NCBI GenBank assembly: GCA_018304165.1
Contig: JAGVWS010000034.1
Span: 1 to 56,801 of the forward strand
Direction of reading: 5' to 3'
Source of the DNA: Candidatus Pacearchaeota archaeon
Lineage (GTDB): Archaea > Nanobdellota > Nanobdellia > Pacearchaeales > GW2011-AR1
DNA length: 56,801 nt
Below, piece after piece: positions 7,954 to 54,735 of this stretch; the first letter of the stretch is position 1, and every line of letters begins with the position of its first letter. A program made the position numbers and the translations under genes. The notes below the pieces were generated by a model that did not search any database, had not been told where the DNA came from, and was given only the letters and a program-made list of their open reading frames with translations.

Positions 7954-8505
7954 TTATATGGTGTCTAATGGGCTTTTTATATTTACCATTTTTCCTGAAG
8001 AATGCAGGTAAGCAAGGGTTGTTTCAGGTGATTTGTGTCCTAACAGTACCTGAACTTCCGAGATGCTGTTTTTATCTTCAATTATAGATAATTCCCTTGA
8101 TTATAGTACTTTCTTTGGAATTATCTATCACGGGAATTCTGTGCAAATATGTGCTACAATTATCAGAATTCACGATAAATGTGTGGCAAAGCTATGCCTT
8201 AGGGTATGGCAATGGACATCTCTATAATTCAGTTTTGCCGCTTTAGCGGCAGTTTTAACTATTTTTTGAATTGTCCTGATATTATACTTTTTATTTCTGT
8301 TTGTCAGGAGGAGATATTCTTCTTTGCTCCTGTTTACACAAATCTGCAATAAAACTCTTAGCAGTTTTTCCGGAATAATAAATATCCTGTCCTTTCCTCC
8401 CTTTCCATTCCTCACAAACCCGTATCTTTCTTTAAAGTTTATGTTCTCGATTTTCAGGTTCACCAGTTCAGAAACCCCTAATCCTGAGGAATTAAGTTTT
8501 AATCT
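7954..8505 (-). pseudogene. Tyrosine recombinase (Xer/integrase family) remnant: 5'-truncated and split by a MITE
   Basis: Upstream piece reads ...GLGVSELVNLKIENINF...GKGGKDRIFIIP...HTLRHSFATHL. After the 93-nt insert the same frame continues IEDKNSISEVQVLLGHKSPETTLAYLH (catalytic Tyr region), with a stop at 7954. An in-frame stop at 8506-8508 removes the N-terminal core-binding domain. Confidence 0.8.
8085..8175 (+). mobile_element. MITE copy A (short form, 91 bp) flanked by TA/TA
   Basis: Shares left module and right end with copies at 19957 and 37369; TA at 8083-8084 and 8176-8177; removing the element plus one TA restores the integrase codons CAT TTA ATT GAA. Confidence 0.8.
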
Positions 8506-14537: not shown

Positions 14538-14625
14538 TTTATGTTATTGTGATAAACTTGTTTTATGTTTTTGTTAATCTTTTATGATGCGCCTTATGCA
14601 TATTTCTTTAACCTGCTCTGTTTAT

Positions 14626-14722
14626 CTATTATAGTCAAGGAATTTAATAGTTGAACAGTCAGTCATTGGCTATCAAAGGAAAGACATGGTATCTTAGTTA
14701 ATTATTTACGTCTTTCACTATA
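14626..14722 (-). repeat. ~97-bp copy of the promoter + first 13 codons of the membrane-protein gene at 43788-44465 (gene-start remnant)
   Basis: About 85% identical over the central 75 nt to 44447-44521; reads MTDCSTIKFLDYNR-stop versus MTDCSTTEVFDYNK... in the intact gene; contains GAAAGACGT/ATGTCTTTC inverted repeat around an AT-rich core. Confidence 0.75.
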
Positions 14723-14766
14723 TTTATTCATATTTAATCTTATTTATCTTTTATAATTACATCTCC

Positions 14767-19839: not shown

Positions 19840-19956
19840 ACAGTTATATTGTAAATGACACTACTATAGTATATATAAACCTTTTTGTCGTTTTGAGTAT
19901 CTCCGATATAAATTAATTCACCTATAGATTAGAAATAAGATGTATAAGTTCTATTA

Positions 19957-20088
19957 TAGATAATTCCCTTGATTATAGCACTTTCTTTGGAATTATCTAT
20001 CACGGGACTGAGAAAACCTTCGGTTGTCAAGATGCTGAAGATGTTGCATCTTGAACACACTCAAGAACTCACGTTCTTGAATTCACGA
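19957..20088 (+). mobile_element. MITE copy B (132 bp) flanked by TA/TA; carries the double-hairpin module (20026-20080)
   Basis: Near-identical to copy C except for loss of GCTACAATTATCA near the right end; TA at 19955-19956 and 20089-20090. Confidence 0.8.
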
Positions 20089-20384
20089 TAATTAATTTTG
20101 AAACGCCGGCCGCATGGTTATTAACGAGGATAAATACTATCAACTATCAAGTCCTTATCAAAGTTAACCTGACCGGATTAACATTATTAGTTTATTCCTG
20201 AACTTATTGCTAAATTATATCTGTATCAGAGATACTGCGTTGCCTTGAATGAGTGGTACCTATGTTTTTATAGAATTTTAAGCAAAAATGAAGGATGTTA
20301 AGTTTGATATTGGACTTAACAGACTGCAAAGATTAATATAGTAACCTTTTACTTCATAGATAATAAACAAATACCAATAATAAA

Positions 20385-22467: not shown

Positions 22468-22541
22468 AGCCCTAGCTGGGGATCGAACCCAGGACCTCGG
22501 CCTTACCATGGCCGCGCTCTACCGGCTGTAGCTACTAGGGC
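22468..22541 (-). tRNA. tRNA-Thr (GGU)
   Basis: Acceptor GCCCTAG/CTAGGGC, anticodon stem CGGCC/GGCCG with loop ATGGTAA, T arm CTGGG-TTCGATC-CCCAG. Confidence 0.85.
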
Positions 22542-23534
22542 GATTTTATTAAGATGACGTTTATTTGAGAACCCTATTAGGTTCATCCATTTTCTTAATT
22601 GTTCAATACCATAAATTTCTATTTTATAAACTTGCCTGTTTCTAACAAAAAGAGTATATAATTGGAAATGTTTAGAGAGATAACTCTTGACGTCCTCAAA
22701 TAGGTTTTTACTGGCAGTTGTAAGGGATATTCTTGGATAAGGCGAACGGTATGATTTTCTTTTGTCAAACGTTATTCCTCCATCAGTATCAAAAATCCCT
22801 CGTAAGGTTGCTCTTATGTTTTCTTCTCCGGAATTTTTTATTTTCTCCGGAATTTTTACAGTATAAGTTTTCTTTCCTGGAGTAAATTCAAGAAACACTT
22901 TTAAAAAATAAAACAACTTGCGAGAATAAATTACAATTCTAACAGCGTTTTCTCTAGAAGAAGGTTTGTAAATATGGGGCTTTGCATCAGGAATAATACT
23001 CTTTATTATTGGTATGATCCTTTCTTTATAATAAGGCAGGTCATATCTTATATCTCCTGCAAATTCTATGTGATACAATTTATTCTTATAAACGTTAAAA
23101 CAACCGTCACCAATAAATGTGCCTGCTAATTCGCATATTTCTGGCGATAACTTTAAAGAAGAAAATGAAGATAGTAATTTTTCTATTTCTATTTTAGTAT
23201 GAATCTTTTTTAGTTTTCTACCTTCCTTAAATTTTTCAATATTTTTTAGATAAGCTGCCTTTCCGCCCTTCACTTTGCCGTGATTATCTGGCAGTTCCTC
23301 AATATTTGACAAAATTTTAGTTTTTTCAGTATCATTTAAGGAAATAATTAATTTATTAAAAAGCTCTTTTGGCATCGACCAGTAACCCTTTCTGTAATTA
23401 TCAAATGTAGATCGCGGTATGCTAAAATAAGTCCGAACACTTGCCCATGTCCCGTTCATTTTAGTTCTTACTGAATTGAAAAGAGTATTAAGAATAATGG
23501 GATTTTTAATTATGACTCTCATATTTATTATCAT
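22503..23534 (-). CDS. Double-motif LAGLIDADG homing-endonuclease-like protein with N-terminal HTH-like region
   Basis: Two LAGLIDADG motifs (LAGTFIGDGCF and LRGIFDTDGGI); the last 13 codons (ALVATAGRARPW-stop) are the 5' half of tRNA-Thr read in frame. Confidence 0.8.
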   Translation of the reverse strand: MIINMRVIIKNPIILNTLFNSVRTKMNGTWASVRTYFSIPRSTFDNYRKGYWSMPKELFNKLIISLNDTEKTKILSNIEELPDNHGKVKGGKAAYLKNIEKFKEGRKLKKIHTKIEIEKLLSSFSSLKLSPEICELAGTFIGDGCFNVYKNKLYHIEFAGDIRYDLPYYKERIIPIIKSIIPDAKPHIYKPSSRENAVRIVIYSRKLFYFLKVFLEFTPGKKTYTVKIPEKIKNSGEENIRATLRGIFDTDGGITFDKRKSYRSPYPRISLTTASKNLFEDVKSYLSKHFQLYTLFVRNRQVYKIEIYGIEQLRKWMNLIGFSNKRHLNKIALVATAGRARPW

Positions 23535-29333: not shown

Positions 29334-29434
29334 TAAATATCTATTGATAGAAAATCTCCACAGATTATTATGCCCTAACTTATTACAGTTGGCTATAATT
29401 TAAGAATATCCTGCAAATTCTTAGTCATCCATTA

Positions 29435-29615
29435 AATTTAAGATGATAATGCATGTTGAGTTTTGTTGATACTTTTTGTTATTGATAATTATTATCCTGA
29501 TAGTTGGCTGAATTTAAGATGATAATGCATGTTAGACATTATTGATAATTATTATCCTGATAGTTGGCTGAATTTAAAATGGTAGTGTATGTTGAGTTTC
29601 ATTAATAATTTTTGT
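29435..29615 (+). repeat. Tandem 60/76-bp repeat array (2 full + 1 degenerate unit)
   Basis: Units at 29435-29510 (76 bp), 29511-29570 (60 bp) and 29571-29615 (degenerate); core AAGATGATAATGCATGTT.GACATTATTGATAATTATTAT. Confidence 0.85.
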
Positions 29616-29672
29616 TTAAGATATTATTGAATTATTTTTATATAAAACTTTATAGCTATAAATAAGAAATCT

Positions 29673-30006: not shown

Positions 30007-32331
30007 ATGACATTAGTAAGAAAAATGACTGCAAAAAGGGGTTCTGGAAGAAAAAAGATTATAGTAATTATCGGAATTATTTCTATAATAATTCTTGCCT
30101 TCATGCTGGCAAGACCAGGAACATCCGGGCTTGCAATATATAATCTTGGCTCTTTCGATTCATCAAACTCCTTAACAAGCTGGTCTGAAAATGAGGCTGA
30201 CGGGGACGGAGATTTTGTCGATTATTCTGTTGATACTACAGCATATTATTCTGGAGGCGGAAGTCTGAGAGGAGCGAGCGAGAGAGGAGCCGGAAGGAAC
30301 TGGAGCGGAGAGTATTTGTATAAAGCAGCGCCGATAACGACGCCCCAGCAGAACAATGTTTATATTAATTTTTACTGGAGAAAGTCATATGATAACAGCA
30401 CGCCAAATTATCATAGAATGTACATTGCAATAAAGAGGCCTGATAATTCAAAACCAATAATATGGGAAGATTCTTCACAAACATGGAATTCATGGAATCA
30501 GGTATCAATAGAAGCATCAAATTATTTTAACCAGAATGGAAATTATGAAATCCAGCTGCACTGCGATTTAGTTAATGGAAATGCTACCGGCGATTCTCGG
30601 TCTCTGTGCTGGTATGATGAGTTTACAGTAGATGTGCAGAATGATTCGCAGGGCGGGGGCGGAGGAGCAAGTCCTGTGTTCTATTCTTATATTGAAAGCC
30701 CCGCCAATAATTCAGAGTACAGCCCTTCAATAACTTATGAATTTAAAGTTTCTGTGACAAACAGCGACGGAAGCGTATGGGCTGACTTTGATAATTTAAA
30801 CAGGACAATGGCTTCATATTCGGGGAATTCTTACAGGTTTCTCATTCCAAATCTGAGCGCAGGAATTCATTCATTTTATTACTGGGGATGGAGCGCCGGA
30901 ATTCCAAAGGCAAGGAATGCGAGCGAGAAAAGATATTATGAAGTGAAAAGAGCGGGCTCTGATGCCAAGATGATAATCAATGGCGTGAGGGGAAGTGCAG
31001 AAGCCATTAATGGAAGTTTGGTTTGCCTGTCTGCAGAAGCTCCTTATTACGCTGATGGCTTAAGGACATTATATGTTAATGGAGAGATATACGGAAACAT
31101 GAGCGGGAACTTTCAGAACTGCACAATTTTTAATAATTTTGGAAACTATAATGCCTCTGCTCATTGGGATGGCGGAACTAATTACGTCGGAGATTGGGAG
31201 GGATGGCAGCTGAAAATTGTCAGGGAGCAGGAGGCTTATTTAAGGCAGAATCCAATAATAAAGATTATTTCTCCTGAAAATAAAACATATCAAAGCGGAA
31301 CTAAGGAGATTAATTTTTCTCTAAAGTCAAGCATTGAACTCAAGGAATGCAGGTATTCTCTTGACGGAAGAGAATCTGCTGTAATGAACAAGACAAACTC
31401 AACAGATTTTGCAATTGAGAAGGTTGATGTTTCAGGTAAATTAAGCCATCAGGTTTTGTTTGTGTGCAAGGACAATTTCGGCAATGTTTACAATGTGCAG
31501 CCGCTGGTAATATTTAGCATTGACAAGGAAAGTGCAGTTGCTTCTGATGAGCCAGAAGAAGAGGAGCAGGAGAAGATTATTAATGAGGGCAGGAGCTGCT
31601 TTGCTGTGTGGAAGTGCACTCAATGGTCTGATTGTTCCGGCATATCTTATGATATAGGAGATGTGATTAAAGGAAGGATCAATGTTTCCGGGGAAAGAAG
31701 GAGGGTTTGTTACGACACTCAATTGTGCGAGAGCGCTAAAATAGAAAGAGAGAGGTGCGATATATCAATACCTGTGGAAACTAAAGCCGGGGAATGGTGC
31801 GGGGAGAATTATGTGGAAGTGTATGAGAAAGACGGAGGAAAGATTGTAAGCAGGGTAAGAGAGGAGAAGAGCGGGCTGGGAGACAGCAAGAGAAGGAGAG
31901 TTGATGTGGGGTTTGTAATCAGCGAGATTGGAGATTACTGCGATTATTGCTACAATGATATTAAGGATTTTGATGAAACAGGAATTGACTGCGGAGGGCA
32001 AAATTGCCCGAGCTGCTCTAAGATAACTTCAAATGCCATACTTTCCGGAAATCATGTTAAAGCAGCTCTGACTGCGCTTGAGATTGTTTTTGCAAGCGCG
32101 ATTTTGTCTTTCCTGTTTTATTGGTTCTTTGTAAGAAGATTGATGCATGATGAAGAAGAGGATATGTCTGAAGCTGACAAAGCAGCAGAATTGGTAAAAG
32201 GCGCTTTGGCCAAGGGATATTCAAAACAGCAGGTAATTGAGCTGTTCAGGAAGAAGAACTGGTCTGATTATGAAATAGATGAGATATTCAGGAGAATAGG
32301 AGAATCAAAAAATTCTGGCTCGGAGAGTTAG
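30007..32331 (+). CDS. Large (774 aa) surface protein with N-terminal signal anchor, Cys-rich module and C-terminal TM + cytoplasmic tail
   Basis: IIVIIGIISIIILAFML N-terminal helix; Cys-rich region (CFAVWKCTQWSDCS, CDYCYNDIKDFDETGIDCGGQNCPSC); TM ALTALEIVFASAILSFLFYWFFV. Confidence 0.7.
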   Translation: MTLVRKMTAKRGSGRKKIIVIIGIISIIILAFMLARPGTSGLAIYNLGSFDSSNSLTSWSENEADGDGDFVDYSVDTTAYYSGGGSLRGASERGAGRNWSGEYLYKAAPITTPQQNNVYINFYWRKSYDNSTPNYHRMYIAIKRPDNSKPIIWEDSSQTWNSWNQVSIEASNYFNQNGNYEIQLHCDLVNGNATGDSRSLCWYDEFTVDVQNDSQGGGGGASPVFYSYIESPANNSEYSPSITYEFKVSVTNSDGSVWADFDNLNRTMASYSGNSYRFLIPNLSAGIHSFYYWGWSAGIPKARNASEKRYYEVKRAGSDAKMIINGVRGSAEAINGSLVCLSAEAPYYADGLRTLYVNGEIYGNMSGNFQNCTIFNNFGNYNASAHWDGGTNYVGDWEGWQLKIVREQEAYLRQNPIIKIISPENKTYQSGTKEINFSLKSSIELKECRYSLDGRESAVMNKTNSTDFAIEKVDVSGKLSHQVLFVCKDNFGNVYNVQPLVIFSIDKESAVASDEPEEEEQEKIINEGRSCFAVWKCTQWSDCSGISYDIGDVIKGRINVSGERRRVCYDTQLCESAKIERERCDISIPVETKAGEWCGENYVEVYEKDGGKIVSRVREEKSGLGDSKRRRVDVGFVISEIGDYCDYCYNDIKDFDETGIDCGGQNCPSCSKITSNAILSGNHVKAALTALEIVFASAILSFLFYWFFVRRLMHDEEEDMSEADKAAELVKGALAKGYSKQQVIELFRKKNWSDYEIDEIFRRIGESKNSGSES

Positions 32332-32368: not shown

Positions 32369-32514
32369 GTTAAGTTGATAATATATCGTGAATGCTTAGA
32401 AGCCATTAAAATTAAAATAACAATGCATGTTGAACATTATTGATAATTATTATTCAAACTTATTTCTAAACTTAAGTTGATGATGCATGTTGAACATTAT
32501 TGATAATTATTATT
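32369..32514 (+). repeat. Second array of the same 60-bp-period repeat family
   Basis: Perfect 32-nt duplicates ATGCATGTTGAACATTATTGATAATTATTATT at 32423-32454 and 32483-32514, plus degenerate copies at 32341-32400; same orientation as the array at 29435. Confidence 0.85.
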
Positions 32515-33127: not shown

Positions 33128-33267
33128 AATTATACCTGTAGATTGATATACTTAAAGTTTTGCAATTTATGATTTGTCAAGAATACATAACTAATTTAAA
33201 TAGCACTTATAGCAGAGGCAAATAATACTCTTAATAACTAGTTAGCCTTAGCACCTATCCTTATATG

Positions 33268-33319
33268 TCAGAATCGTTAGATTCTGAGCATGCTCAAAAA
33301 CTAACTCCAAAGTTTTTGA
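33268..33319. other. Divergent double hairpin (TCAGAATC-gtta-GATTCTGA, 6-nt linker, TCAAAAACT-aactcca-AGTTTTTGA)
   Basis: Two perfect 8-9-bp stems, each starting TCA and ending TGA like the canonical double-hairpin family; preceded by G as in the other copies. Confidence 0.5.
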
Positions 33320-33501
33320 CAGGCAAGGGTTAGATTGTTTTGTAGTTGATAAATTACCTATAGCTAACCCTATGCGGATAGACTCTTAGCACATGCATGC
33401 AACTTATAACTGCCCTTTAATATTTATTAGTAAATTAAAATTTATTTTTACAGCTAAATCTGGTACCAAGTTATCACAATCATCAATGTTAATTAATAGT
33501 A

Positions 33502-34077
33502 TTAAACCTTCGGGAGTTTTCTGTCAAATCCAGATCCTGAAATTTCAGAGTTTTCCCGGGATTCTTCCATCTCTTTGCCTTCCCTGCCTCTTGTTTCAAG
33601 GCTGGCTGAGAATTCCTGCCTCTGTCTAAGCATGGGATTGCTGAATCTCGGCTGGCTTTGCATGCTTTGGGGCTGGACTGAAGGCAATTGCTGGGAGACG
33701 CCTCCATATAACTTTTCTTTTAAGTCATCTCCCAGAAGAGACAAGCCTTTGGCAATTGTTTTATTTTGGTCGAGAAGAGTGTTTAATTTGTTGAGGAATT
33801 CTGCCTCTTTCTGGAGGTCGCCGCCAGCACCCATGCCTCCTGAAGAACTGAAGTTTCTTTCTGCGAAGCTTTTGGCGGATAATTCAAATATCTGGAGAAG
33901 CTTTGATATCTGGCCTGAAAGGAGCTCTAGTTTTTCAGCATTCCTTGCCATTACTCTCTGAAGGCTTACAAAGTTTTCCACAAGAGCCCTGTTAAGATGC
34001 TCTGCACCGGAGCTTGAGAAATGCGCGCTGCGATGTCTTGCAGAACTGCTGCCGGATTTCCTCTTTTTTGCAGGCAT
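33502..34077 (-). CDS. Hypothetical low-complexity/coiled-coil protein
   Basis: Longest of several overlapping ORFs; duplicated BRE/TATA-like box (TATAAACTTTTCAGATGAGGG x2 at ~34160-34222) upstream. Confidence 0.4.
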   Translation of the reverse strand: MPAKKRKSGSSSARHRSAHFSSSGAEHLNRALVENFVSLQRVMARNAEKLELLSGQISKLLQIFELSAKSFAERNFSSSGGMGAGGDLQKEAEFLNKLNTLLDQNKTIAKGLSLLGDDLKEKLYGGVSQQLPSVQPQSMQSQPRFSNPMLRQRQEFSASLETRGREGKEMEESRENSEISGSGFDRKLPKV

Positions 34078-34227
34078 ATTTTAGACAGGAAGGAGATGTT
34101 TAAAAATCTTTGGAATTCAGATTTTTAAGCCACGAGATTTCTTCGAGAAATCTCGATGTTTATAAACTTTTCAGATGAGGGGATTTGTTGAATAATTGTA
34201 TAAACTTTTCAGATGAGGGTGTTTAAA

Positions 34228-34785
34228 TTATTTATAATAAACGCCGAAGCACCTTTGTGAAATTAATGGATTATTTCTGTTGTTAGTCCGCGTCCTTTTT
34301 AATGCCTCCAGCAAACCGCTGTCTCTGCTGACAACAACCACCTTCTCATCTCTTCTTCTCATGTCGCGGGCAAAGTACATTCCAGTAGCTATTAAATCCT
34401 TGTTAACATCTGATAATTCCATGTCAGAAGAATTGTCATCAATTATTCTTAATAATTCTGACCTCTCTGCGTCCGGAATTACTATTACTCTGTTCTGATA
34501 ATCACTTTCAAAAGCGGAAACTATCCTGTCATAGAAGTTGTAGAGTTTGCACATCTCGGAGGCAACTTCTCTATGTTTATCGCCCCTCATTTTAAGGCGC
34601 CTTCTGGTGCCTAGTAGATATTTGATAAGACGCCTCGTTTCATTTAAAACTCCCTGAGTTGTGTAGACAATATCCCTGTTAGCGGCTGCTTCAAGCAGGG
34701 CAGAGAATTCTCTAAATTCATTTAAAGCAATCTTTCTGAATGCTTTAGCTCTGTCTTCGTTAACCATTAAATAAGTTGCAATCAA
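34228..34785 (-). CDS. Hypothetical protein, possibly PIN-like C-terminal domain
   Basis: C-terminal SDVNKDLIATGMYFA...KVVVVSRDSGLLEAL resembles the distal PIN acidic motifs; weak. Confidence 0.35.
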   Translation of the reverse strand: MIATYLMVNEDRAKAFRKIALNEFREFSALLEAAANRDIVYTTQGVLNETRRLIKYLLGTRRRLKMRGDKHREVASEMCKLYNFYDRIVSAFESDYQNRVIVIPDAERSELLRIIDDNSSDMELSDVNKDLIATGMYFARDMRRRDEKVVVVSRDSGLLEALKRTRTNNRNNPLISQRCFGVYYK

Positions 34786-34797
34786 AAACCACTTTAT

Positions 34798-35088
34798 TCA
34801 GATATCGGGAAGTTTGTTAAGATGACTTGTAAATATGGGGCTAATAGCGCTGCTGTCAAAAAAATACGATGCTCCTTTATTTTGAATTATCCTTCGGAAC
34901 CTATTGGGCTGGTATCTCTCGTCAGGGACTTGCTCCATGCCTCTTCTGTAATTCATAGGAATATAGGAAGGAAGAGCTGAATTTGGTCTAAACTTGATTA
35001 TCTCTGGTACATCTCCAAACATTCTTGAGAACTCGTTCTCTAAAATATCTATTCTGTGGTTTCTATTTAAAACTTCCGGCGCTTCCAT
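34798..35088 (-). CDS. Hypothetical protein (96 aa)
   Basis: ORF co-oriented and 12 nt upstream of the next gene. Confidence 0.4.
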   Translation of the reverse strand: MEAPEVLNRNHRIDILENEFSRMFGDVPEIIKFRPNSALPSYIPMNYRRGMEQVPDERYQPNRFRRIIQNKGASYFFDSSAISPIFTSHLNKLPDI

Positions 35089-35150
35089 CAGTTTTTCAGA
35101 AAAGAATCCTTTATAATTATTTATCTGTTATTATACACTATTATAAACTA

Positions 35151-35241
35151 TGGGCCTAGGAGGAATCGAACCCCCATCTGACGGTCACTCCGTTTTTTTG
35201 AAACGCTGGAGCCGTCTATTCTGCCGTTGAAATATAGACCC
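35151..35241 (-). tRNA. tRNA-Trp (CCA) with 20-nt canonical BHB intron (35186-35205)
   Basis: Acceptor GGGTCTA/TAGGCCC, T arm GGGGG-TTCGATT-CCTCC, anticodon stem GACGG/CCGTC. The loop CUCCAG|intron|A folds as a 4-bp CUCC/GGAG helix flanked by 3-nt bulges AGC and UGA, plus a GUUU/AAAC helix. Confidence 0.85.
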
Positions 35242-35725: not shown

Positions 35726-36337
35726 ATGTTCTATCTGGCTGAAGTTGAGGATTATATAAGAGTTGAGCCGAGGCTCTTCGGGCTTGATACTCAGGAGGCC
35801 GTAAGACAGCAGCTTAGGATTACTTATTCAGGATTTGTGAATAAAGAGCTTGGGTATGTTGTCTCGGTTGTGGGCGTTCTTAATGTGCAGGAGGGGGTTG
35901 TAATACCCGGAGATGGGGCTGTTTATTATAACTCAAAGTTTAAGATGCTTGTGTGGAAGCCCGAGCTTCAGGAGCTTGTTTATTGCATTGTCAAAGAAGT
36001 TGCTAATTTTGGGGCATTTATGAATATGAGTGTTATTGATGGATTGATGCATGTAACACAGGTAACTGATGATTATGTAAGCTTTTCAAAATCGGGCTCT
36101 TTAACTTCAAGGTCTGGAAAAAAAAGTCTTAAGAAAGGGGACTTGTGCCTGGCGAGGATTGTCGCTATAAGCTACAAAGCCGGCGAGCCAAAGATGAGCC
36201 TTACTATGAGGCAGCCAGGGCTTGGAAAACTGGAATGGATTAAGGAAGAAAAGAGAAAGGCGAAGACAAAGCCTTCAAAGAATGAAGGGGAAGAAAGAGA
36301 AGGAAAAACAAGCAAGTCTAAGAAAAAGAAAGAATAA
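35726..36337 (+). CDS. rpo7: DNA-directed RNA polymerase subunit E' (Rpo7) with Lys-rich C-terminal tail
   Basis: MFYLAEVEDYIRVEPRLFG N-terminus and S1 domain (FGAFMNMSVIDGLMHVTQV). Confidence 0.9.
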   Translation: MFYLAEVEDYIRVEPRLFGLDTQEAVRQQLRITYSGFVNKELGYVVSVVGVLNVQEGVVIPGDGAVYYNSKFKMLVWKPELQELVYCIVKEVANFGAFMNMSVIDGLMHVTQVTDDYVSFSKSGSLTSRSGKKSLKKGDLCLARIVAISYKAGEPKMSLTMRQPGLGKLEWIKEEKRKAKTKPSKNEGEEREGKTSKSKKKKE

Positions 36338-37237: not shown

Positions 37238-37368
37238 CTATTTACAGATAATAATTAGAATGATTGGTCGTTTTCCGGATCAACTTTTAGAAATTCACTT
37301 CAATAACACCATCAACTTAAAATGGCTTATTATGCATTATTGGCTGTAGGGAATTATTTATTTTCTTA

Positions 37369-37513
37369 TAGATAATTCCCTTGATTATAGTACTTTCTTT
37401 GGAATTATCTATCACGGGACTGAGAAAACCTTCGGTTGTCAAGATGCTGAAGATGTTGCATCTTGAACACACTCAAGAACTCACGTTCTTGCTACAATTA
37501 TCAGAATTCACGA
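37369..37513 (+). mobile_element. MITE copy C (full form, 145 bp) flanked by TA/TA; carries the double-hairpin module (37438-37491)
   Basis: Left hairpin ATAGATAATTCC/GGAATTATCTAT, central 70-nt block, right end GCTACAATTATCAGAATTCACGA; TA at 37367-37368 and 37514-37515. Confidence 0.8.
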
Positions 37514-37542
37514 TAACTATAATCAAAATTATTTTAGTCGCG

Positions 37543-38562
37543 CTAGCTTGCTGTTCCTAGAAAATAATTTTTGTCTTTGTCCTTGCTGTCAAATAAGACG
37601 CTTAAACTTTGGCCTGTAATGTCCCTGTAAATAGCTTCGCCAAACAGCGAAACAAGGCTTATAATTTCTATATTTAAATCGCCATTTTTTTCAACATTGA
37701 GGGTATCAGAGACAAATATTTTATCAAAACCACTTAAAGCCTTTGTACCTTTGCTGAATATTCCATGAGTGCCATAAGCACTGACATTTTTAGCGCCCCT
37801 CCTCTTAAGTTCTTCAAGAGTCATGAGCAAAGTTCCTCCGCTGTCAATTATATCATCAACAATGAGGCAGTTTTTGTCTTCAACTTCTCCTATTATTCTT
37901 ACTTCTTCTACTTTTCCAGCTTCTTTTCTTGTTTTGTAGCCGATGGCTACTTCCGGCTTGAAACCATACCTCTCAAATCTTTCAGAAAAATCAACGGCTC
38001 TCTTGGCGCCTCCAGCATCAGGGGAAACTATAATTAAATTGTTTAAAATCTCCTTATGATTTTTTACTATATAATCAACAACACTTGGAGCGCTGGATAA
38101 TTCATCACAGGGGATTTCAAAGAAGCTGCTGGTTGTTGAATTGTGCAAATCAACAGTCATAATTCTATCAGCATATTGGGAAATCATCTTAGCCAGGGCT
38201 TTCATATTAACGCTGACTCTGCTTTCATCTTTTCTGTCCTGGCGGGCGAAGCGGGTGTAAGGGATAATAACATTGACCTCATTTTTTGAGGAGAAACGCA
38301 TTGCCTGAATCGCAAATTCCAGCTGAACATACCAATCAGCGGGGTTATTGTTAGAATCATGTATAAAGCAGCACCTTCTTCCCCTTATATTATCCTTAAT
38401 TCTTACCTTAAATTCCCCATCTTTAAACTTCTTAACTTCCATATCAATAAGTTTGATGTCAAAATCTCTTCCAGGCCTCTCTGAAATATTATTATAAATG
38501 CCCTTTGCAAAACTATACCCCCTGCCATTTGGATCTGCTATTATTGCAACACCCTTTTCCAT
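37543..38562 (-). CDS. prs: Ribose-phosphate pyrophosphokinase
   Basis: DLHNSTT, VSPDAGGAKRA and PRPP-binding loop LIVDDIIDSGGT. Confidence 0.9.
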   Translation of the reverse strand: MEKGVAIIADPNGRGYSFAKGIYNNISERPGRDFDIKLIDMEVKKFKDGEFKVRIKDNIRGRRCCFIHDSNNNPADWYVQLEFAIQAMRFSSKNEVNVIIPYTRFARQDRKDESRVSVNMKALAKMISQYADRIMTVDLHNSTTSSFFEIPCDELSSAPSVVDYIVKNHKEILNNLIIVSPDAGGAKRAVDFSERFERYGFKPEVAIGYKTRKEAGKVEEVRIIGEVEDKNCLIVDDIIDSGGTLLMTLEELKRRGAKNVSAYGTHGIFSKGTKALSGFDKIFVSDTLNVEKNGDLNIEIISLVSLFGEAIYRDITGQSLSVLFDSKDKDKNYFLGTAS

Positions 38563-38739
38563 GAAATAAAAAATAATACCATCTATTTAAGGATTATTGG
38601 GGTAGGAAAATAAATGAAAATGAAAACACGGGGCAACTTACATAATAAATGCCGATTTTCCGTGAAAGATTAAATCTTTTTTTTGTTTTAAATATAAAAT
38701 TCTTAAAAAGTTAAGCGGTCGTTTCAAACAGTGCCAGAT

Positions 38740-38791
38740 GTCAAGATGCTGGATTTGCATCTTGAACACTATCAAGATTTAACAATCTTGA
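38740..38791 (+). other. Free-standing double-hairpin element (candidate small RNA)
   Basis: G-TCAAGATGC-tggattt-GCATCTTGA-ACACTA-TCAAGATT-taac-AATCTTGA; TATA-like TTTAAATATAAAA at ~38688-38700. Confidence 0.45.
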
Positions 38792-38861
38792 AGTTTTAGA
38801 CAGGGTTGTTTTATAGCTCAACTCTTTTTGAATTATCAAATCGATTGACTATGACTCTTTT

Positions 38862-39065
38862 TATCACCTCGCCTCTAGTTAGCCCAGAATTATTGCGAGA
38901 TAATAACTGTTCATCCTCTTGCGTTTTAAAACCCTGGAAGTGTAAGGCACCTAAGGTTCCTTGCTAACAACCTCCTAGATTTCAACTAATTTTAAAACCC
39001 TGGAAGAGGCTCTTTGGCGATAAATTAGTATGCCTGAAGCCTCTTCTGGGTAAAAAGAGGTGATA
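38862..39065 (-). ncRNA. Candidate structured ncRNA (~200 nt), family unknown
   Basis: Minus-strand BRE/TATA (AAAAGGTTTAAATA, 39083-39096) puts a start at ~39063. Nested helices: 39057-39065/38862-38870 (9 bp), 39044-39050/38883-38889 (7 bp), hairpin 39003-39011/39038-39046 (9 bp). Internal 17-nt direct repeat at 38924 and 38990. Confidence 0.4.
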
Positions 39066-39170
39066 GTAATTGTAAGGATTCAGGGTATTTAAACCTTTTG
39101 GTTGAACGTCACTATATAATGATAACAAAATTATCTTGCTGAATTTCTTTTAACCTGCTAACAATGCTGA

Positions 39171-39372
39171 TAATGGTTAACTCAAGGTTTAAAAATCTTT
39201 TACTAAAGCGTGAGATTTTTAGACCTCTTGTCAACAATACTTAATGGTTAACTCAAAGTTTAAAAATCTTTTACTAAAGCGTGAGATTTTTAGACCTCTC
39301 GTCAACAATACTTAATGGTTAACTCAAGGTTTAGAAATTTTTTAAATTTCAAGACCTTCAATTTTTACAAAT
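39171..39372 (+). repeat. 71-bp tandem repeat (2 full units + degenerate third), each carrying a BRE/TATA-like box
   Basis: 39171-39241 and 39242-39312 differ at 2 positions; third unit degenerates into the scpA promoter; box CAAGGTTTAAAAATC in each. Confidence 0.85.
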
Positions 39373-40356
39373 ATGAAAGTTTATAAGTTTTGTTATGCTG
39401 TGGATTGCATGGAAATTATTGGAGGAGGTGTAAAAGAGGCTGGTGAATCTGCTAGAGATGCTGATAATATGAAGCCTGCTAAACTTGATATGATGGACCA
39501 CGAGCATGTTTATAATATCCTCATAGACAATGAGATAGGGTGGCAGGCAATACTTTATGAGCTGATTAATACAGAGCAGCTGGACCCCTGGAATCTGGAC
39601 CTTGCAGCCTTAGCTCAGAAATACCTTGAAAAAATAAGGGAGCTTGAGGAGGCAAATTTCTTCGTGTCCAGCAGCGTGATACTGGCAGCGTCACTTCTCT
39701 TGAGGATTAAATCAGAAATACTTCGGGAGAAGTATATAAGAAGCCTTGATGAGATTCTCTTTGGAAAGAAGGAAAAAGAGAAGGCAAGCATTGAAAGGCT
39801 TGAGATTGATGAAAGCGAGCTGCCTCTTATTTACCCGAGGAGTCCTCTGCCGAGGATGAAGAAAGTTACTTTGCAGGAATTAGTAAATGCTTTAAGCAAA
39901 GCAATAGGAACTGAAAACAGGAGGATAAAGAAAGAGATTGTGCTGAGAAGCGCCCGGAGAGAGGCAGAGATAGTCTTTCCGAGGTTCAGGATAAAGATAC
40001 AGGACAGGATAAGGCATATTTATGCTAAAATTATCTCTAAATTCAAGCAGAGAAAGGAGAGGATTCCTTACTCTGACATAGCTGTGAGCAAGGAGGAAAA
40101 GATTGCCGGATTTCTTCCAGTGCTTCACCTAGACAACCAGCAGAAGATATTTCTGGAGCAGGAGAGACACTTTGATGAGATTTATGTATGGCTCTATACG
40201 CACTATAGGAAGGAATTTCTTGAGAAGGAAAAGGAAGCGCTTAAAGAGCTGGTTGAAGAGGAAAAGAAAGAGCTGAAGGAGATGAATGATGCGGAAAAAA
40301 TCTCCAGGAAAACGGGATTTGACAATCCTTTGGCGGAATTGTTTGGGGAGATTTGA
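39373..40356 (+). CDS. scpA: Segregation and condensation protein A (kleisin)
   Basis: LDPWNLDLAALAQKYLEKIRELEEANFFVSSSVILAASLLLRIKSE is the ScpA N-terminal signature. Confidence 0.8.
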   Translation: MKVYKFCYAVDCMEIIGGGVKEAGESARDADNMKPAKLDMMDHEHVYNILIDNEIGWQAILYELINTEQLDPWNLDLAALAQKYLEKIRELEEANFFVSSSVILAASLLLRIKSEILREKYIRSLDEILFGKKEKEKASIERLEIDESELPLIYPRSPLPRMKKVTLQELVNALSKAIGTENRRIKKEIVLRSARREAEIVFPRFRIKIQDRIRHIYAKIISKFKQRKERIPYSDIAVSKEEKIAGFLPVLHLDNQQKIFLEQERHFDEIYVWLYTHYRKEFLEKEKEALKELVEEEKKELKEMNDAEKISRKTGFDNPLAELFGEI

Positions 40357-40625
40357 TTGAAGATAGATTCTTCCAGCTCTGATGCATCGGTAAAAATAAA
40401 AATATAACAAACAACAATATTATTAATCATTAGATGAACATCAAATAAAATTAGATAGTCTGTCAATTAATAGTGCTATTATTCTTTGGCAATTATAGCA
40501 ATAACATACAAAATAATTTGTAAAAGTCAGCTTAAAAAATTGATAATGCTAAGTATTAATTTTACGCGTAGTCCTTAAACTATAGCATAAGACTTTAATA
40601 TTTCCCCATAATGTCTTATGATACA

Positions 40626-40678
40626 TCAAGGATGTTAATCCTTGAGTGCGTTCAAGATGCATCTCCAAGCATCTTGAC
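40626..40678 (-). other. Free-standing double-hairpin element (minus orientation)
   Basis: Reverse complement reads G-TCAAGATGC-ttggagat-GCATCTTGA-ACGCAC-TCAAGGAT-taac-ATCCTTGA; a third 8-bp hairpin (CATAAGAC/GTCTTATG) follows at ~40581-40620. Confidence 0.45.
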
Positions 40679-40849
40679 ACATGGTGAAATATTTTGGTTT
40701 CTCGTTATAACTAATAACACTTAATAAATCAGCTTAAGATGCGTGCATTTGTCTAATAATAATTTATTTTAAATAAGCTATTTTATAATGTTTATATCAG
40801 ATGTTATTAATGCTCTGCTCAAGATTTAGCTAGGATTGACTCTAATCGT

Positions 40850-41749
40850 TTAACTTTTATAATTCTTCTCCTTTAGGCCACTTAACAAAAAGTTTTCAAA
40901 TGCAGTTCGATTGACTTTCTGAATAGGATATTCAACGGCTACCTTGCTTTCTGGATTTATTCTGCCTAACAACTCTTGCGCTCTTTTAATATATTCTTTT
41001 CCGGTTACTGTAAAAGTCTGGTATCCATTAAGTGCAGAAAGTACTGGAAAGAAACCCTCTTCCGGGATAAATCTTCCACTCCTGATAATCTCGTCGCCAG
41101 AAACGTTGCAGCAGGTTAGATCCCGGCCGAGAACAGTATCCTGGAAAGTATTGCATTTTGGGCAGATAGCTCTTGCTGGAACTTCTCCAAATCTTTCTAT
41201 TAAACTGTATGTGATGTCTGGTCTTTTTGAAAAGATATCCTCCAAAAGTATTGTCTTAACTGGCTTGAGAAAAAATATAGACAAAGAATTCATAAATTCT
41301 CTCAGGTTTCTGGAGGATCGCGCCATTTCTGGAATGGCTTGAGATAGTTCATCATATCTCCTTTCTAACTTGACTTTGTTTTTTAATCTCCATGCATATT
41401 CCCGTATTATTCTGCCTACAATTTTTGGTTTTGCCTCCAAGAAGCTAGATCTTATGCTGTCTGGGCTCGGGGCAGGCACAGCATCAGAACTTATGTCTGT
41501 GTTGCCGTTTGGAACATTAACAGAGAATTTTATCTGTTTAACTTTATAACTTTCTCCTAAAGGAAGAATTCTCTCAAGTCTTGCGAGATTAAACGGATCT
41601 AGGATAGCAACCATTTGATTATCAGAATAGCCTAAAGCGTAAGCTATCTCTTTTTTAGTCTTTCCCAATATATTTGACGGAGTACCGCCGATATCTAACA
41701 TCATTGTCCTGCTTTCTAGAATGTCTTGCATTATTATAGCTGAGGACAC
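40850..41749 (-). CDS. Hypothetical protein (299 aa) with a possible Cys-rich knuckle (CPKC...CC)
   Basis: Long clean ORF; no family recognised. Confidence 0.5.
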   Translation of the reverse strand: MSSAIIMQDILESRTMMLDIGGTPSNILGKTKKEIAYALGYSDNQMVAILDPFNLARLERILPLGESYKVKQIKFSVNVPNGNTDISSDAVPAPSPDSIRSSFLEAKPKIVGRIIREYAWRLKNKVKLERRYDELSQAIPEMARSSRNLREFMNSLSIFFLKPVKTILLEDIFSKRPDITYSLIERFGEVPARAICPKCNTFQDTVLGRDLTCCNVSGDEIIRSGRFIPEEGFFPVLSALNGYQTFTVTGKEYIKRAQELLGRINPESKVAVEYPIQKVNRTAFENFLLSGLKEKNYKS

Positions 41750-43611: not shown

Positions 43612-43631
43612 TCAAGATTGATAAATCTTGA
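43612..43631. other. Single TCAAGATT-gata-AATCTTGA hairpin abutting the tRNA-His 5' end
   Basis: 8-bp stem identical to hairpin 2 of the 38740 element, 5 nt from the tRNA-His G-1. Confidence 0.5.
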
Positions 43632-43787
43632 GGCCTAAAAATTTTACAATTTTTAAGTTTATTATACTTACGAATAGAGGATAGTTGTTTAAAAGTTTTA
43701 TTAATCAATCTCGGAGAGCTGCAACTAGAGAAATTATTACTTCGGACAATGAACACAGTTCCAAGTTTTAGTATTCATACTACCTGT

Positions 43788-44465
43788 TTAACTATTATCC
43801 TTTATAAGCTTTTCCAGGAGCTTGTTAACAACTGCTCTTGTCATGAAGACCATTATAAGAGCGGCAGAATACCATATTAACGGATAGAAGGGATTTGTCC
43901 ATGGAGATTCACTGCAGAATCTGTAAACACAGTTGACATTGCTGGACGGAGAAGTGAAAATTAGAGTAGTCAGGTAGATAAAAGTTATCTCGATAACGCT
44001 TATGAGAACGCCCTTGTTGTTAGTCCTGATTGGTTTGCCAATAAGGAATACCGCGGCAATAACGAGGGGCAGGAGATAGACATGCTGGAGGCTGACAATT
44101 TTAACAAGGACATTGGTTTCCCTAAAAAAGTAATCAACTATTCCTAAGAATGATCTGCCTGACAATAACCTTACAAGAAAATCAATAACCCATATTACAT
44201 CAGGAATCAGGAGAATATACATCTGGCTTTTAATTAAGGGTATATTTCTGATGATTATTCCCAATCCAAGAAGAATCATGCCAATATAGCAAAACCAAAA
44301 AATATCATAAATCCTGTTGAAATAAAAAGCATTGAATATTCCGATAACTCCTACTAATAAGATAATGACTCCTGTAATATTCAGGATAATATTCTTTGAC
44401 ATTACTTTTATTTCTGCATTCTTTTTATTATAGTCAAAGACTTCAGTAGTTGAACAGTCAGTCAT
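43788..44465 (-). CDS. Polytopic membrane protein, hypothetical
   Basis: Six or so hydrophobic helices across 225 aa. Confidence 0.6.
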   Translation of the reverse strand: MTDCSTTEVFDYNKKNAEIKVMSKNIILNITGVIILLVGVIGIFNAFYFNRIYDIFWFCYIGMILLGLGIIIRNIPLIKSQMYILLIPDVIWVIDFLVRLLSGRSFLGIVDYFFRETNVLVKIVSLQHVYLLPLVIAAVFLIGKPIRTNNKGVLISVIEITFIYLTTLIFTSPSSNVNCVYRFCSESPWTNPFYPLIWYSAALIMVFMTRAVVNKLLEKLIKDNS

Positions 44466-44521
44466 TGACTATCAGGGGAAAGACATGTAATTTTGAGGAA
44501 TTATTTACATCTTTCACTATA
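44425..44521 (-). repeat. Promoter/5'-end module of the membrane-protein gene; master copy of the repeat at 14626-14722
   Basis: See 14626-14722; TAGTGAAAGATGTAAT is locally duplicated (44506-44540). Confidence 0.75.
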
Positions 44522-44752
44522 ATTACATCTTTCACTATAATTATTAATATCCTGTGCCTGCTATAACTTAAGTTTATCTGTTAATTCCTGCCAATTGCTA
44601 TTCTGCCTATTAGTTTTATGCTCTTGGTTTTATTAATTGTTAATTTATAGCAGATGACTTAATAAATTGAGCATTTTTGTCATTTGCTATATTCGGAAAA
44701 CATAAATGAGAGTGCTCAATTATTTATGTTTTATGTTATATAGCTTGGTTTA

Positions 44753-54283: not shown

Positions 54284-54735
54284 AAAATATAGCTATTTTT
54301 AGAGTATTTAAGCTTTACTATAGTAAAGAGCATATTTCTTTAATGAACTAGTAGTCAGATATAGTAAATGATACTTTCTTTTAATAGATTTTGTGTGTGT
54401 TAAAATATATTTTAATGGAAAATTTTCTATCAAAGGAAATTATCTTTTCTTTTAATAGGATCATTCTCTTACAAAGAACAGCATAATTGGTGCTACTTCT
54501 AGCTCATTAAGTATCTTCTTTTCTAGAAAAGTCTTTATAGATTAACATAAGGTGATTAGCGGAAATCCGCACTAACTTTTAATATAACTATTATCAATAG
54601 CCTTTATGCTCACTATAAACAACCATCTTGACACCAATTAATATGTCGTTTTACAGGTTATCAGTTAATTATTCTTGGTTCTGAGGTAACTTTTTGGTGC
54701 GAGAATGCCATAATCACCAACATAATAGTTCTAAC

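Follow-up and report, generated by a model that had tools for sequence, protein, structure and literature searches.

What kind of element is the double hairpin at positions 38740–38791 of contig JAGVWS010000034.1, and does the exact compensation between the arms of its stems reflect a folded RNA or events at the level of DNA? A stretch of 56,801 nucleotides of this contig (from its position 1), hereafter called the window, was analysed. A first-pass annotation, made from the sequence alone, had reported four copies of this two-stem element and had taken the compensated pairing as a sign of selection on a folded nucleic acid. We find that the double hairpin is the core of an undescribed family of small dispersed, partly mobile hairpin repeats, which occurs in groundwater DPANN (Woesearchaeota/Nanoarchaeota-type) archaea and in one virus. 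The data establish the dispersal of the family, the insertion polymorphism of one of its carriers, a hairpin module that is separable from these carriers, a transfer involving a virus, stems made of Watson-Crick pairs and flanks that are specific to one strand.

The double hairpin and its relatives

Inspection of the window revealed five copies of the double hairpin. Four of them were already known from the first-pass annotation, and a check of the sequence agreed with their reported positions and description. The fifth was found by a scan for perfect hairpins and by the covariance model R1, which was built from a seed of 22 units. The copies, with their R1 scores, are the following.

20024–20083, plus strand: double-hairpin copy 1 (70.7 bits)
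37436–37495, plus strand: double-hairpin copy 2 (61.8 bits), with a hairpin 2 of 7 bp
38738–38794, plus strand: double-hairpin copy 3, the focal copy (74.1 bits)
38741–38765, plus strand: hairpin 1 of copy 3, TCAAGATGC tggattt GCATCTTGA, followed by the linker ACACTA
38772–38791, plus strand: hairpin 2 of copy 3, TCAAGATT taac AATCTTGA
40623–40680, minus strand: double-hairpin copy 4 (74.7 bits)
33265–33322, minus strand: double-hairpin copy 5 (63.5 bits), G-TCAAAAACT-ttggagtt-AGTTTTTGA-GCATGC-TCAGAATC-taac-GATTCTGA

The hairpin-1 pattern TCAAGATGC-N5–14-GCATCTTGA has four matches in the window, all with loops of 7–10 nt, against 0.00 expected from 100 dinucleotide-preserving shuffles. The arms of hairpin 2 read TCAAGAAC/GTTCTTGA in copies 1 and 2, TCAAGATT/AATCTTGA in copy 3 and TCAAGGAT/ATCCTTGA in copy 4, and the reported compensation of the three inner pairs is thereby borne out. 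The constancy ascribed to the stems did not hold throughout. Hairpin 2 had been said always to keep 8 bp; in copy 2 its final A is changed to C at a deletion junction and the last pair is gone. Hairpin 1 had been said to be invariant; in copy 5 four of its pairs, and several pairs of hairpin 2, are altered, always on both sides and thus with full compensation. The AT-rich TATA-like box (TTTAAATATAAAA, 38689–38701) and the T-rich GTTTTAG after hairpin 2 that had been described beside copy 3 are both present. Under R1 the five copies score 62–75 bits on the sense strand and 22–40 bits on the antisense strand, and the fold z-scores of the palindromic stems range from −2.3 to −5.0 on both strands.

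A scan of metagenomes, anchored on hairpin 1 plus RCRC only and with hairpin 2 left unconstrained, gave 72 loci. About 40 of these are clearly related to the window copies, nearly all from groundwater datasets that include the window's own project and the Hainich aquifer. Their hairpin 2 is nearly always a perfect stem of another sequence (for example TCAAAAAT, TCAGGAAT, AGAAAATC, AGAGAATTGT, CAAGATTTGC or CCAAAAGTCTC). In the seed of R1, 98.6% of the pairs are formed and 11 of the 17 pairs are changed on both sides, with none changed on one side only; no shuffled or slid register came near this. The search with a covariance model, which the first-pass annotation had proposed as a check, returned 128 matches at 90 non-overlapping loci in 370 kb of related contigs. 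The controls, 745 kb of loci with an exact hairpin-1 stem in every one, yielded a single match, in a Woesearchaeota metagenome-assembled genome (MAG). Likewise, 205 kb of related loci contain 94 adjacent pairs of perfect hairpins, compared with 17 in 863 kb of controls. Among records with a taxonomic name, two alone have the element, the MAGs L075 ('Nanoarchaeota archaeon') and L095 ('Candidatus Woesearchaeota archaeon'), and the host is on this ground taken to be a DPANN archaeon; in a scan of contigs with hairpin 1 only, all but these two among the at least 117 matches listed are chance matches in bacteria.

The flanks of the hairpins are asymmetric. Among 65 non-redundant hairpin-1-type stems, oriented by their 3' flank alone, the base at −1 is G in every case, T stands at −2 in 52 and A at −3 in 50, and positions +1 to +6 read GCACAC. 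The 5' flank is conserved as ATG, with CAAGA(T/C)G in a subset of units, and TAAC-like loops of hairpin 2 are seen in one orientation only. Units stand alone or paired, or form arrays with a maximum of five hairpins and linkers of 4–8 nt; the hairpins within one array differ in sequence and neighbouring units are in direct orientation. The consensus unit can be written as (A)TG-[TCAAGAnnn-loop-nnnTCTTGA]-RCRYnn-[TCARRnnn-UAAC-like loop-nnnYYTGA]. A related architecture with four hairpins, ATG-H1-GCACA-H2-GUGCA-H3-UGCAUCC-H4-UGAU, is common in contigs from Hainich. Fourteen of its 38 pairs are compensated, H4 keeps a conserved C·U mismatch with covarying outer pairs, and a run of U follows H4.

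Units are intergenic in about 34 of 39 loci, and their orientation relative to the neighbouring genes comprises all four arrangements in roughly random proportions, with about a quarter of the units in divergent promoter regions. All-against-all clustering of 483 open reading frames (ORFs) revealed no recurrent family of neighbouring proteins. In the window, copy 2 lies between the convergent S27a and prs genes and copy 4 between the convergent scpA and ORF 40850–41749. With R1, 5–7 hairpin arrays are counted within the 56.8-kb window, and two diverged hairpin pairs were recorded in addition to the five copies.

43612–43655, minus strand: diverged hairpin pair, TAAAAATT gtaa AATTTTTA GGCC TCAAGATT tatc AATCTTGA (R1 about 30 bits on either strand)
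34100–34155, minus strand: diverged hairpin pair, CGAGATTTCT cga AGAAATCTCG TGGC TTAAAAATCT gaattccaa AGATTTTTAA (R1 16.6 bits)

The former ends 6 nt upstream of the 5' end of tRNA-His, with the five bases TGTAT in between, and the length of this intergenic region is equal in eight sister contigs. It is the only case of adjacency to a tRNA; none was seen in 51 related loci. The latter sits between a promoter-like box and the start of ORF 33502–34077. Copies 3 and 4 and the pair at tRNA-His are fixed in all sister contigs.

Carriers of the hairpins and a unit common to a virus

Two of the copies had been described as free-standing, on either side of scpA. This could not be upheld: no copy in the window is free-standing, and each lies inside a dispersed or mobile unit. 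These units, some of which have terminal inverted repeats (TIRs), are listed below.

8082–8178, plus strand: type-1 carrier without hairpin block, with a junction between CACGGGA and ATTCTGTGC
19954–20091, plus strand: type-1 carrier with copy 1, imperfect TIRs TTATAGATAATTC...GAATTCACGATAA
37366–37516, plus strand: type-1 carrier with copy 2, imperfect TIRs TTATAGATAATTC...GAATTCACGATAA
40581–40709, minus strand: type-4 carrier with copy 4, imperfect TIRs TATAACGAGAGAC...GTCTTATGCTATA
33255–33384, minus strand: type-5 carrier with copy 5, 130 nt, TIR-like ends CTATCCGCATA / TATAAGGATAG (CTATCC...GGATAG)
33385–33392, minus strand: left copy of the 8-bp direct duplication GTGCTAAG
33247–33254, minus strand: right copy of the 8-bp direct duplication GTGCTAAG
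38676–38791, plus strand: 116-nt unit composed of an AT-rich TATA-like box, a 40-nt leader and, at its 3' end, double-hairpin copy 3

The type-5 locus is polymorphic. An empty allele with a single GTGCTAAG is present in three contigs from three samples, and the filled allele in seven contigs and the window. The carrier is non-coding and has TIR-like ends, an exact 8-bp duplication and an insertion polymorphism, which are the properties of a miniature inverted-repeat transposable element (MITE). At least one carrier is a MITE that is active, or was so recently, and has a target duplication of 8 bp. A paralogue of its backbone in contig L178 lacks exactly the 58-nt module TG-H1-GCATGC-H2-CA.

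The type-1 and type-4 carriers have imperfect TIRs of 11–13 bp and many copies, with no clear target-site duplication (TSD). Type-1 carriers hold 0, 2, 3 or 5 hairpins, and the form without hairpins also occurs in contig L204. Where the window has copy 1, with an internal deletion of 115 nt in the carrier, sister contig L197 holds five hairpins between the same flanks; at the locus of copy 2, sister contig L124 has three other hairpins, TCAAAATC, TCAAGAAG and TCAAGAAT. The type-4 element of about 148 nt has four hairpins, namely H1, H2, H3 and an H0 in which one pair is a C·U mismatch, and was found in at least eight contigs with unrelated flanks, including two copies on one 35-kb contig (L154 and L167). 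Its H3 stem covaries (CATAAGAC/GTCTTATG versus CAACAGAC/GTCTGTTG), and the copy in the window lacks 19 nt (TTTTTGTTCTCTCGAATAC) that are present in sister contigs.

Blocks of hairpins are gained or lost within carriers between near-identical strains. Contig L141 differs from L140 by a 41-nt insertion that holds one hairpin, and in L134 two hairpins are inserted into the loop of another hairpin, directly after CAAGA. Compared with L197 and L208–L210, the window has deletions of 115 nt at 20080 (GA microhomology) and of 19 nt at 40679 (GT microhomology), which are either true strain variants or the result of assembly collapse at repeats; many sister contigs and assemblies break exactly at the carriers. 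The first-pass annotation had counted it against its own proposal if copies were found only as passive MITE cargo. To a large extent the copies are indeed found inside such carriers. However, the same module recurs in several unrelated carriers, and it is thus not simply passive cargo.

The 116-nt unit with copy 3 is 100% identical to positions 122–237, on the opposite strand, of IMG/VR contig L119, a 12.9-kb contig of a head-tail virus that encodes a major head protein and an SU10-type adaptor. No other sequence is shared between the two. The identity stops exactly at the 3' foot of hairpin 2, with its last base, and the unit has sharp ends with neither TIR nor duplicated flank. Its leader has no occurrence elsewhere in the sequences searched, and the locus of copy 3 is identical across five sister-strain contigs. 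A second scan of viral sequences gave only a chance match (L207), and L119 is the sole IMG/VR contig with a unit. At L119 1–172 an incoming ORF runs through both hairpins in antisense (ending in SRLLNLDSVQDANPAS) and terminates at a TGA within the stem of hairpin 1; a viral gene may thus have received the unit at its 3' end.

Pairing, mechanism and alternative explanations

The pairing in the stems is almost purely of the Watson-Crick type. In 74 unique sense matches with 1175 pairs, 1161 are Watson-Crick pairs, and the remainder consists of one G·U, five A·C and eight other combinations. Hairpin 2, which was free of any search constraint, gives the same pattern. A wobble test on imperfect hairpins near the units yielded nine G·T versus five A·C on the tagged strand, mostly from background AT-rich hairpins. 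Furthermore, the loop of the first hairpin in the diverged pair at 34100–34155 (34133–34155, CGAGATTTCT-cga-AGAAATCTCG) is reverse-complemented to tcg in contigs L226 and L228, with identical stems. Such a flipped loop is a signature of palindrome inversion or template switching at the DNA level. Templated correction of quasi-palindromes is an established mutational mechanism, and it can yield perfectly compensated stems without selection on RNA. The near absence of G·U and the DNA-level dynamics of the palindromes thus make compensation a weaker argument for selection on a folded RNA. On the other hand, the conserved stem base, loops and mismatch, together with the asymmetric tags, argue that something recognises a folded single strand of one particular strand. 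The original claim of selection on a folded nucleic acid is therefore retained in part: the family is structured, compensation is massive and the hairpin of one strand is conserved, whereas the step to RNA is weakened.

We tentatively propose, with a probability of about 0.45, that the double hairpin is a mobile palindrome akin to the repetitive extragenic palindromic (REP) sequences and the palindrome-associated transposable elements (PATEs), a module that sits within MITEs and is recognised in the form of a single-stranded hairpin. The module would act at the DNA level. By analogy with the sub-terminal palindromes of IS200/IS605-derived PATEs or of REP sequences, the folded single strand of one particular strand might be recognised by an enzyme of the HUH/Y1 type, or by another structure-specific enzyme. 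Such recognition would keep the stem geometry, the stem base TCAAGA/TCTTGA, the loop motifs and the flanks (ATG..., ...GCAC) and would allow the inner pairs to drift, and Watson-Crick compensation would be upheld partly by recognition and partly by templated arm-to-arm correction during replication. The module would spread or be exchanged as DNA, often nested in MITEs. Where units are transcribed they would fold into stable stem-loops, a side effect that may or may not be co-opted.

Several observations weigh against this proposal. No partner enzyme was found, and the genes of the window include neither a transposase nor an integrase. A search for the Y1 motif over about 590 kb gave a single IS200-type TnpA, in contig L149, flanked by unrelated hairpins. 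This is a complete IS200-type element (1–560) with a tnpA gene at 88–525 encoding 145 amino acids with the motifs YHxVxxxKYR and HVHFLL. Its flanking hairpins, CCCCAAGG-tcttg-CCTTGGGG and CCCTATGG-tcttg-CCATAGGG, occur nowhere else in the sequences searched; the element lies 80 nt from a TCAAG double hairpin, to which it is unrelated in sequence. Among the contigs compared, no clean pair of empty and filled sites was obtained for a bare double hairpin. The differences in hairpin blocks could be deletions rather than insertions, the variants in the window being deletions with 2-nt microhomology, and a carrier that has TIRs and a TSD can move with no hairpins inside it, so that the proposal does not explain why several carriers share one module. 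Some features would fit an RNA, namely sense-strand tetraloops of the UUCG and UMAC types, the AT-rich TATA-like box found 5'-terminally in three types of carrier, and the final hairpin with U-run of the four-hairpin relatives. Finally, hairpin 1 has an identical sequence at sites on two continents, as a conserved partner acting in trans would lead one to expect, and not a selfish pair that evolves fast; this identity, however, was forced by the scan pattern.

The explanation that takes these RNA-like features at face value is that the units are independently transcribed structured small RNAs, each with its own AT-rich promoter and two to four hairpins, which act as a protein-binding scaffold or decoy; their genes would have been dispersed by riding on or being copied by mobile elements, and one would have been captured by a virus. 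We regard this as unlikely but not negligible. It would account for the strong covariation in every stem, for loops and linkers that are conserved on one strand only, for the C(UUCG)G tetraloop of the type-1 carrier and the UAAC/UCAC (UMAC-type) loops of hairpin 2 on the sense strand, and for a C·U mismatch that is conserved inside a helix with covarying outer pairs. The fixed order of the hairpins in the four-hairpin relatives, with a U-run after H4, the start of the conserved part of three carrier types at a TATA-like box and an orientation that is independent of the neighbouring genes are also consistent with it. However, RNA families do not usually show such a scarcity of G·U, with one in 1175 pairs and a frequency no higher than that of A·C on either strand, and the spacing between TATA-like box and hairpin in the relatives ranges from about 10 to 45 nt. 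The conserved unit of the window type lacks a U-tract, its identity with the virus ends at the foot of the hairpin, and at one locus strains have freely lost hairpin blocks or exchanged them for others. There is also no match to Rfam 15, in agreement with the earlier remark that the element was not recognised as a known RNA family: at the gathering threshold the window gave only five tRNAs, a permissive scan of 37300–40800 gave nothing on the hairpins, and ten related loci gave one tRNA only. A more specific version, in which we place less confidence, makes the units genes of a new class of modular multi-hairpin small RNAs confined to groundwater DPANN archaea. A common first hairpin (UCAAGAUGC...GCAUCUUGA) would offer a conserved protein its handle, and hypervariable hairpins would follow. 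The many dispersed copies per tiny genome, one of them captured by a virus, would then take part in the conflict between virus and host or between symbiont and host; they could, for example, be decoys or a repertoire for hairpin recognition.

It is equally doubtful that the hairpins are cis-acting and beneficial to host or carrier, as bidirectional stabilisers of RNA 3' ends, terminators, insulators or structural sites in DNA within compact intergenic regions; carriers with hairpins would then be better tolerated and hence accumulate, as in the secondary roles proposed for bacterial REP and bacterial interspersed mosaic element (BIME) sequences. The nearly always intergenic position (about 34 of 39 loci), the location of several units between convergent genes (for example copies 2 and 4), stems that fold on a transcript of either strand (z −2.3 to −5.0), the same module in unrelated carriers, and the fixation of copies 3 and 4 and of the tRNA-His pair in sister contigs would suit such a function. 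Yet the share of units in divergent promoter regions, about a quarter, is that expected at random, the strand-specific flanks and loops are left unexplained, and strains that are nearly identical differ in the presence of units and in the number of hairpins, with no changes that would compensate for this. In archaea, termination depends on U-tracts and not on hairpins, and most units have no U-tract. A role as an intrinsic or archaeal terminator was rejected, as units occur in all four gene-orientation classes and a T-run follows only H4 of the four-hairpin relatives. Very improbable is the suggestion that the unit at 38676–38791 is an attachment site, with attB in the chromosome and attP in L119 and the double hairpin as substrate of a viral integrase. 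The 116 nt of full identity between unrelated flanks, its exact end at the hairpin foot and the fixation of the locus in the population are what such a site would look like, but the 12.9-kb viral contig encodes no integrase, no lysogen junction was found, a single IMG/VR contig has the unit, and the other copies and some 90 non-viral related loci would be unexplained. We give almost no weight to a last group of readings. The conserved outer half-sites TCAAG/CTTGA could suggest a palindromic operator for a dimeric DNA-binding protein, which does not fit a half-site spacing of about 9 to 30 nt and an inner sequence that is always self-complementary. A CRISPR-like site disagrees with the finding of never more than one unit at CRISPR-like spacing, with one hairpin-1 match per locus in 72 loci, and an integron attC-like site with the lack of a GTTRRRY/RYYYAAC core, a cassette array or intI beside neighbours that are housekeeping genes in mixed orientation. 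Chance palindromes are excluded by the shuffles (4 versus 0.00) and by the single R1 match in the 745 kb of controls.

Two further candidates were tried and rejected. Some relatives have a stop-free frame ATG-TCA-AGA-TGC that could be read as coding; the hairpin-1 loops, however, vary in length across all three frames, and a third of them would introduce a TGA stop. C/D-box and H/ACA small RNAs were considered for some UGAUGA-like loops, but no D box, K-turn geometry or Rfam signal was found.

Known analogues, window context and significance

The closest published analogue of the family is found in Haloquadratum walsbyi, the PATEs/SMR-A, which are derived from or target IS200/IS605 (PMC3119063). 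They include 52-bp 'terminal-only' versions with two palindromes, lack inverted terminal repeats and target duplication, and often lie inside other mobile elements (PMC3119063). Like the PATEs, the present repeats are archaeal, non-coding, very short and multi-copy, with two near-terminal palindromes, nesting in mobile elements and repeat-mediated deletions of the core, and the 116-nt unit has neither TIR nor target duplication and carries a near-terminal palindrome at its end. In contrast to the PATEs, they have no sequence link to the ends of IS200/IS605 (the hairpins at the TnpA of L149 differ) and no TnpB/ωRNA context; the host is a DPANN archaeon, the stems belong to an AT-rich family TCAAGA...TCTTGA with hypervariable inner parts, and arrays reach five hairpins.

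REP/BIME (REPIN) elements are mobilised by Y1 transposases of the REP-associated tyrosine transposase (RAYT) type and have a GTAG or CGTC tag at the foot of the palindrome (PMC3733652, PMC2817692), and the RAYT gene itself is flanked by REP palindromes (PMC3733652). The likeness lies in short, extragenic, tagged palindromes of high copy number, in mosaic arrays with short linkers and in compensated stems; in REP/BIME the recognised form is a single-stranded hairpin of one strand, and the same is proposed here. The tag, however, is ATG/GCAC in the 65 oriented units and not GTAG/CGTC, neighbours are in direct and not in alternating orientation, the stems within one genome are far more diverse, and no RAYT flanked by the repeats was seen in the window and about 590 kb of related sequence. 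The literature surveyed describes REPs from bacteria only.

In its modular layout the type-1 carrier, with 0, 2, 3 or 5 hairpins, resembles the BOX elements of pneumococci, to which it has no sequence relation and which belong to another domain of life. BOX elements are non-coding, dispersed and strongly folded, and fixed 5' and 3' modules bracket a variable number of internal hairpin modules. Unlike those of BOX, the hairpin module described here recurs in other carriers and outside them. With classical MITEs only the carriers can be compared: type 5 has TIR-like ends, a TSD and an empty allele, and types 1 and 4 have imperfect TIRs and many copies. Unlike the TIRs of a MITE, the double hairpin is internal and separable, and 'MITE' thus names the vehicles and not the finding. 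The double hairpin has no match in GenBank phages or PLSDB, and the literature searched on hairpin repeats in DPANN archaea, on archaeal REP/RAYT systems and on non-coding RNAs of Woesearchaeota does not describe the family.

The window is archaeal chromosomal DNA with a G+C content of about 36%. It derives from JGI metagenome 3300002502, and near-identical contigs are present in the Ga0209541/Ga0209542 sets and in ENA and Logan assemblies. Its genes encode the ribosomal proteins L31e, S19e and S27a, RpoE, CysRS, HisRS, Prs and ScpA, as well as several toxin-antitoxin and Fic proteins. Other repeats were also recorded. Two clusters at 29429–29616 and 32377–32514 consist of repeats of about 60 nt, in five copies with the core ATGCATGTTGAACATTATTGATAATTATTAT, and flank an ORF of 774 amino acids (30007–32331) without Pfam match; they might be of an origin-type or regulatory nature. 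The cumulative GC skew of the window has its turn near 20 kb and not at these clusters. Just upstream of scpA, at 39171–39344, a 71-nt sequence is repeated in tandem to give three copies, and sister contigs show no difference there. The first two copies each hold a 9-bp hairpin (TAAAAATCT...AGATTTTTA), and a related 40-mer lies at 35929–35968. A dispersed repeat of about 200 nt at 54528–54727 matches contigs L153 (82%) and L185 (76%) between unrelated flanks, and a 125-nt repeat occurs at 14602–14726 and 44401–44525 with 78% identity.

A segment of about 945 bp (~34181–35125), with ORFs 34228–34785 and 34798–35088 on the minus strand, adjoins tRNA-Gly. It is present in the window and in contig L227 and absent from L226 and L228, which have in its place a 31-nt perfect hairpin, TGCTGTGTTGCAC-gatta-GTGCAACACAGCA. 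At its end stands a promoter-like 20-mer that is duplicated (CCTCATCTGAAAAGTTTATA), and the segment looks like a small element integrated at a tRNA gene. The tRNA-Gly(UCC) itself (35151–35241) measures 91 nt, with an end-to-end Rfam match of 46.5 bits, and probably contains an intron; a tRNA match in contig L155 spans 140 nt. At 22503–23534 a LAGLIDADG ORF of 343 amino acids overlaps the end of tRNA-Thr (22468–22541), and among sister contigs L198, L201 and L202 some have an extra LAGLIDADG gene of 304 amino acids directly after a DUF2283 gene. These differences are a homing-endonuclease polymorphism.

DPANN archaea have very small, gene-dense genomes and, to our knowledge, their non-coding DNA has hardly been studied. 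In the window, with some 55 genes, the seven hairpin arrays fill roughly one in eight intergenic regions, and the family is shared by aquifers on two continents, moves between strains and has reached a virus, which is surprising in genomes so streamlined. Undescribed in the databases and literature available here, it is best filed with the small palindromic mobile repeats, which are now also found in DPANN archaea, and as far as the searched literature shows it would be the first REP/BIME-like system in Archaea outside the haloarchaeal PATEs. In these uncultured lineages the repeats can be used to type strains, to recognise breaks in assemblies and to link viruses with their hosts. If the units were RNAs after all, they would constitute a new and abundant class of archaeal RNA. 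The family shows that perfect compensation in stems can come about and last through events in the DNA itself, which calls for caution in the covariation-based discovery of non-coding RNAs in metagenomes.

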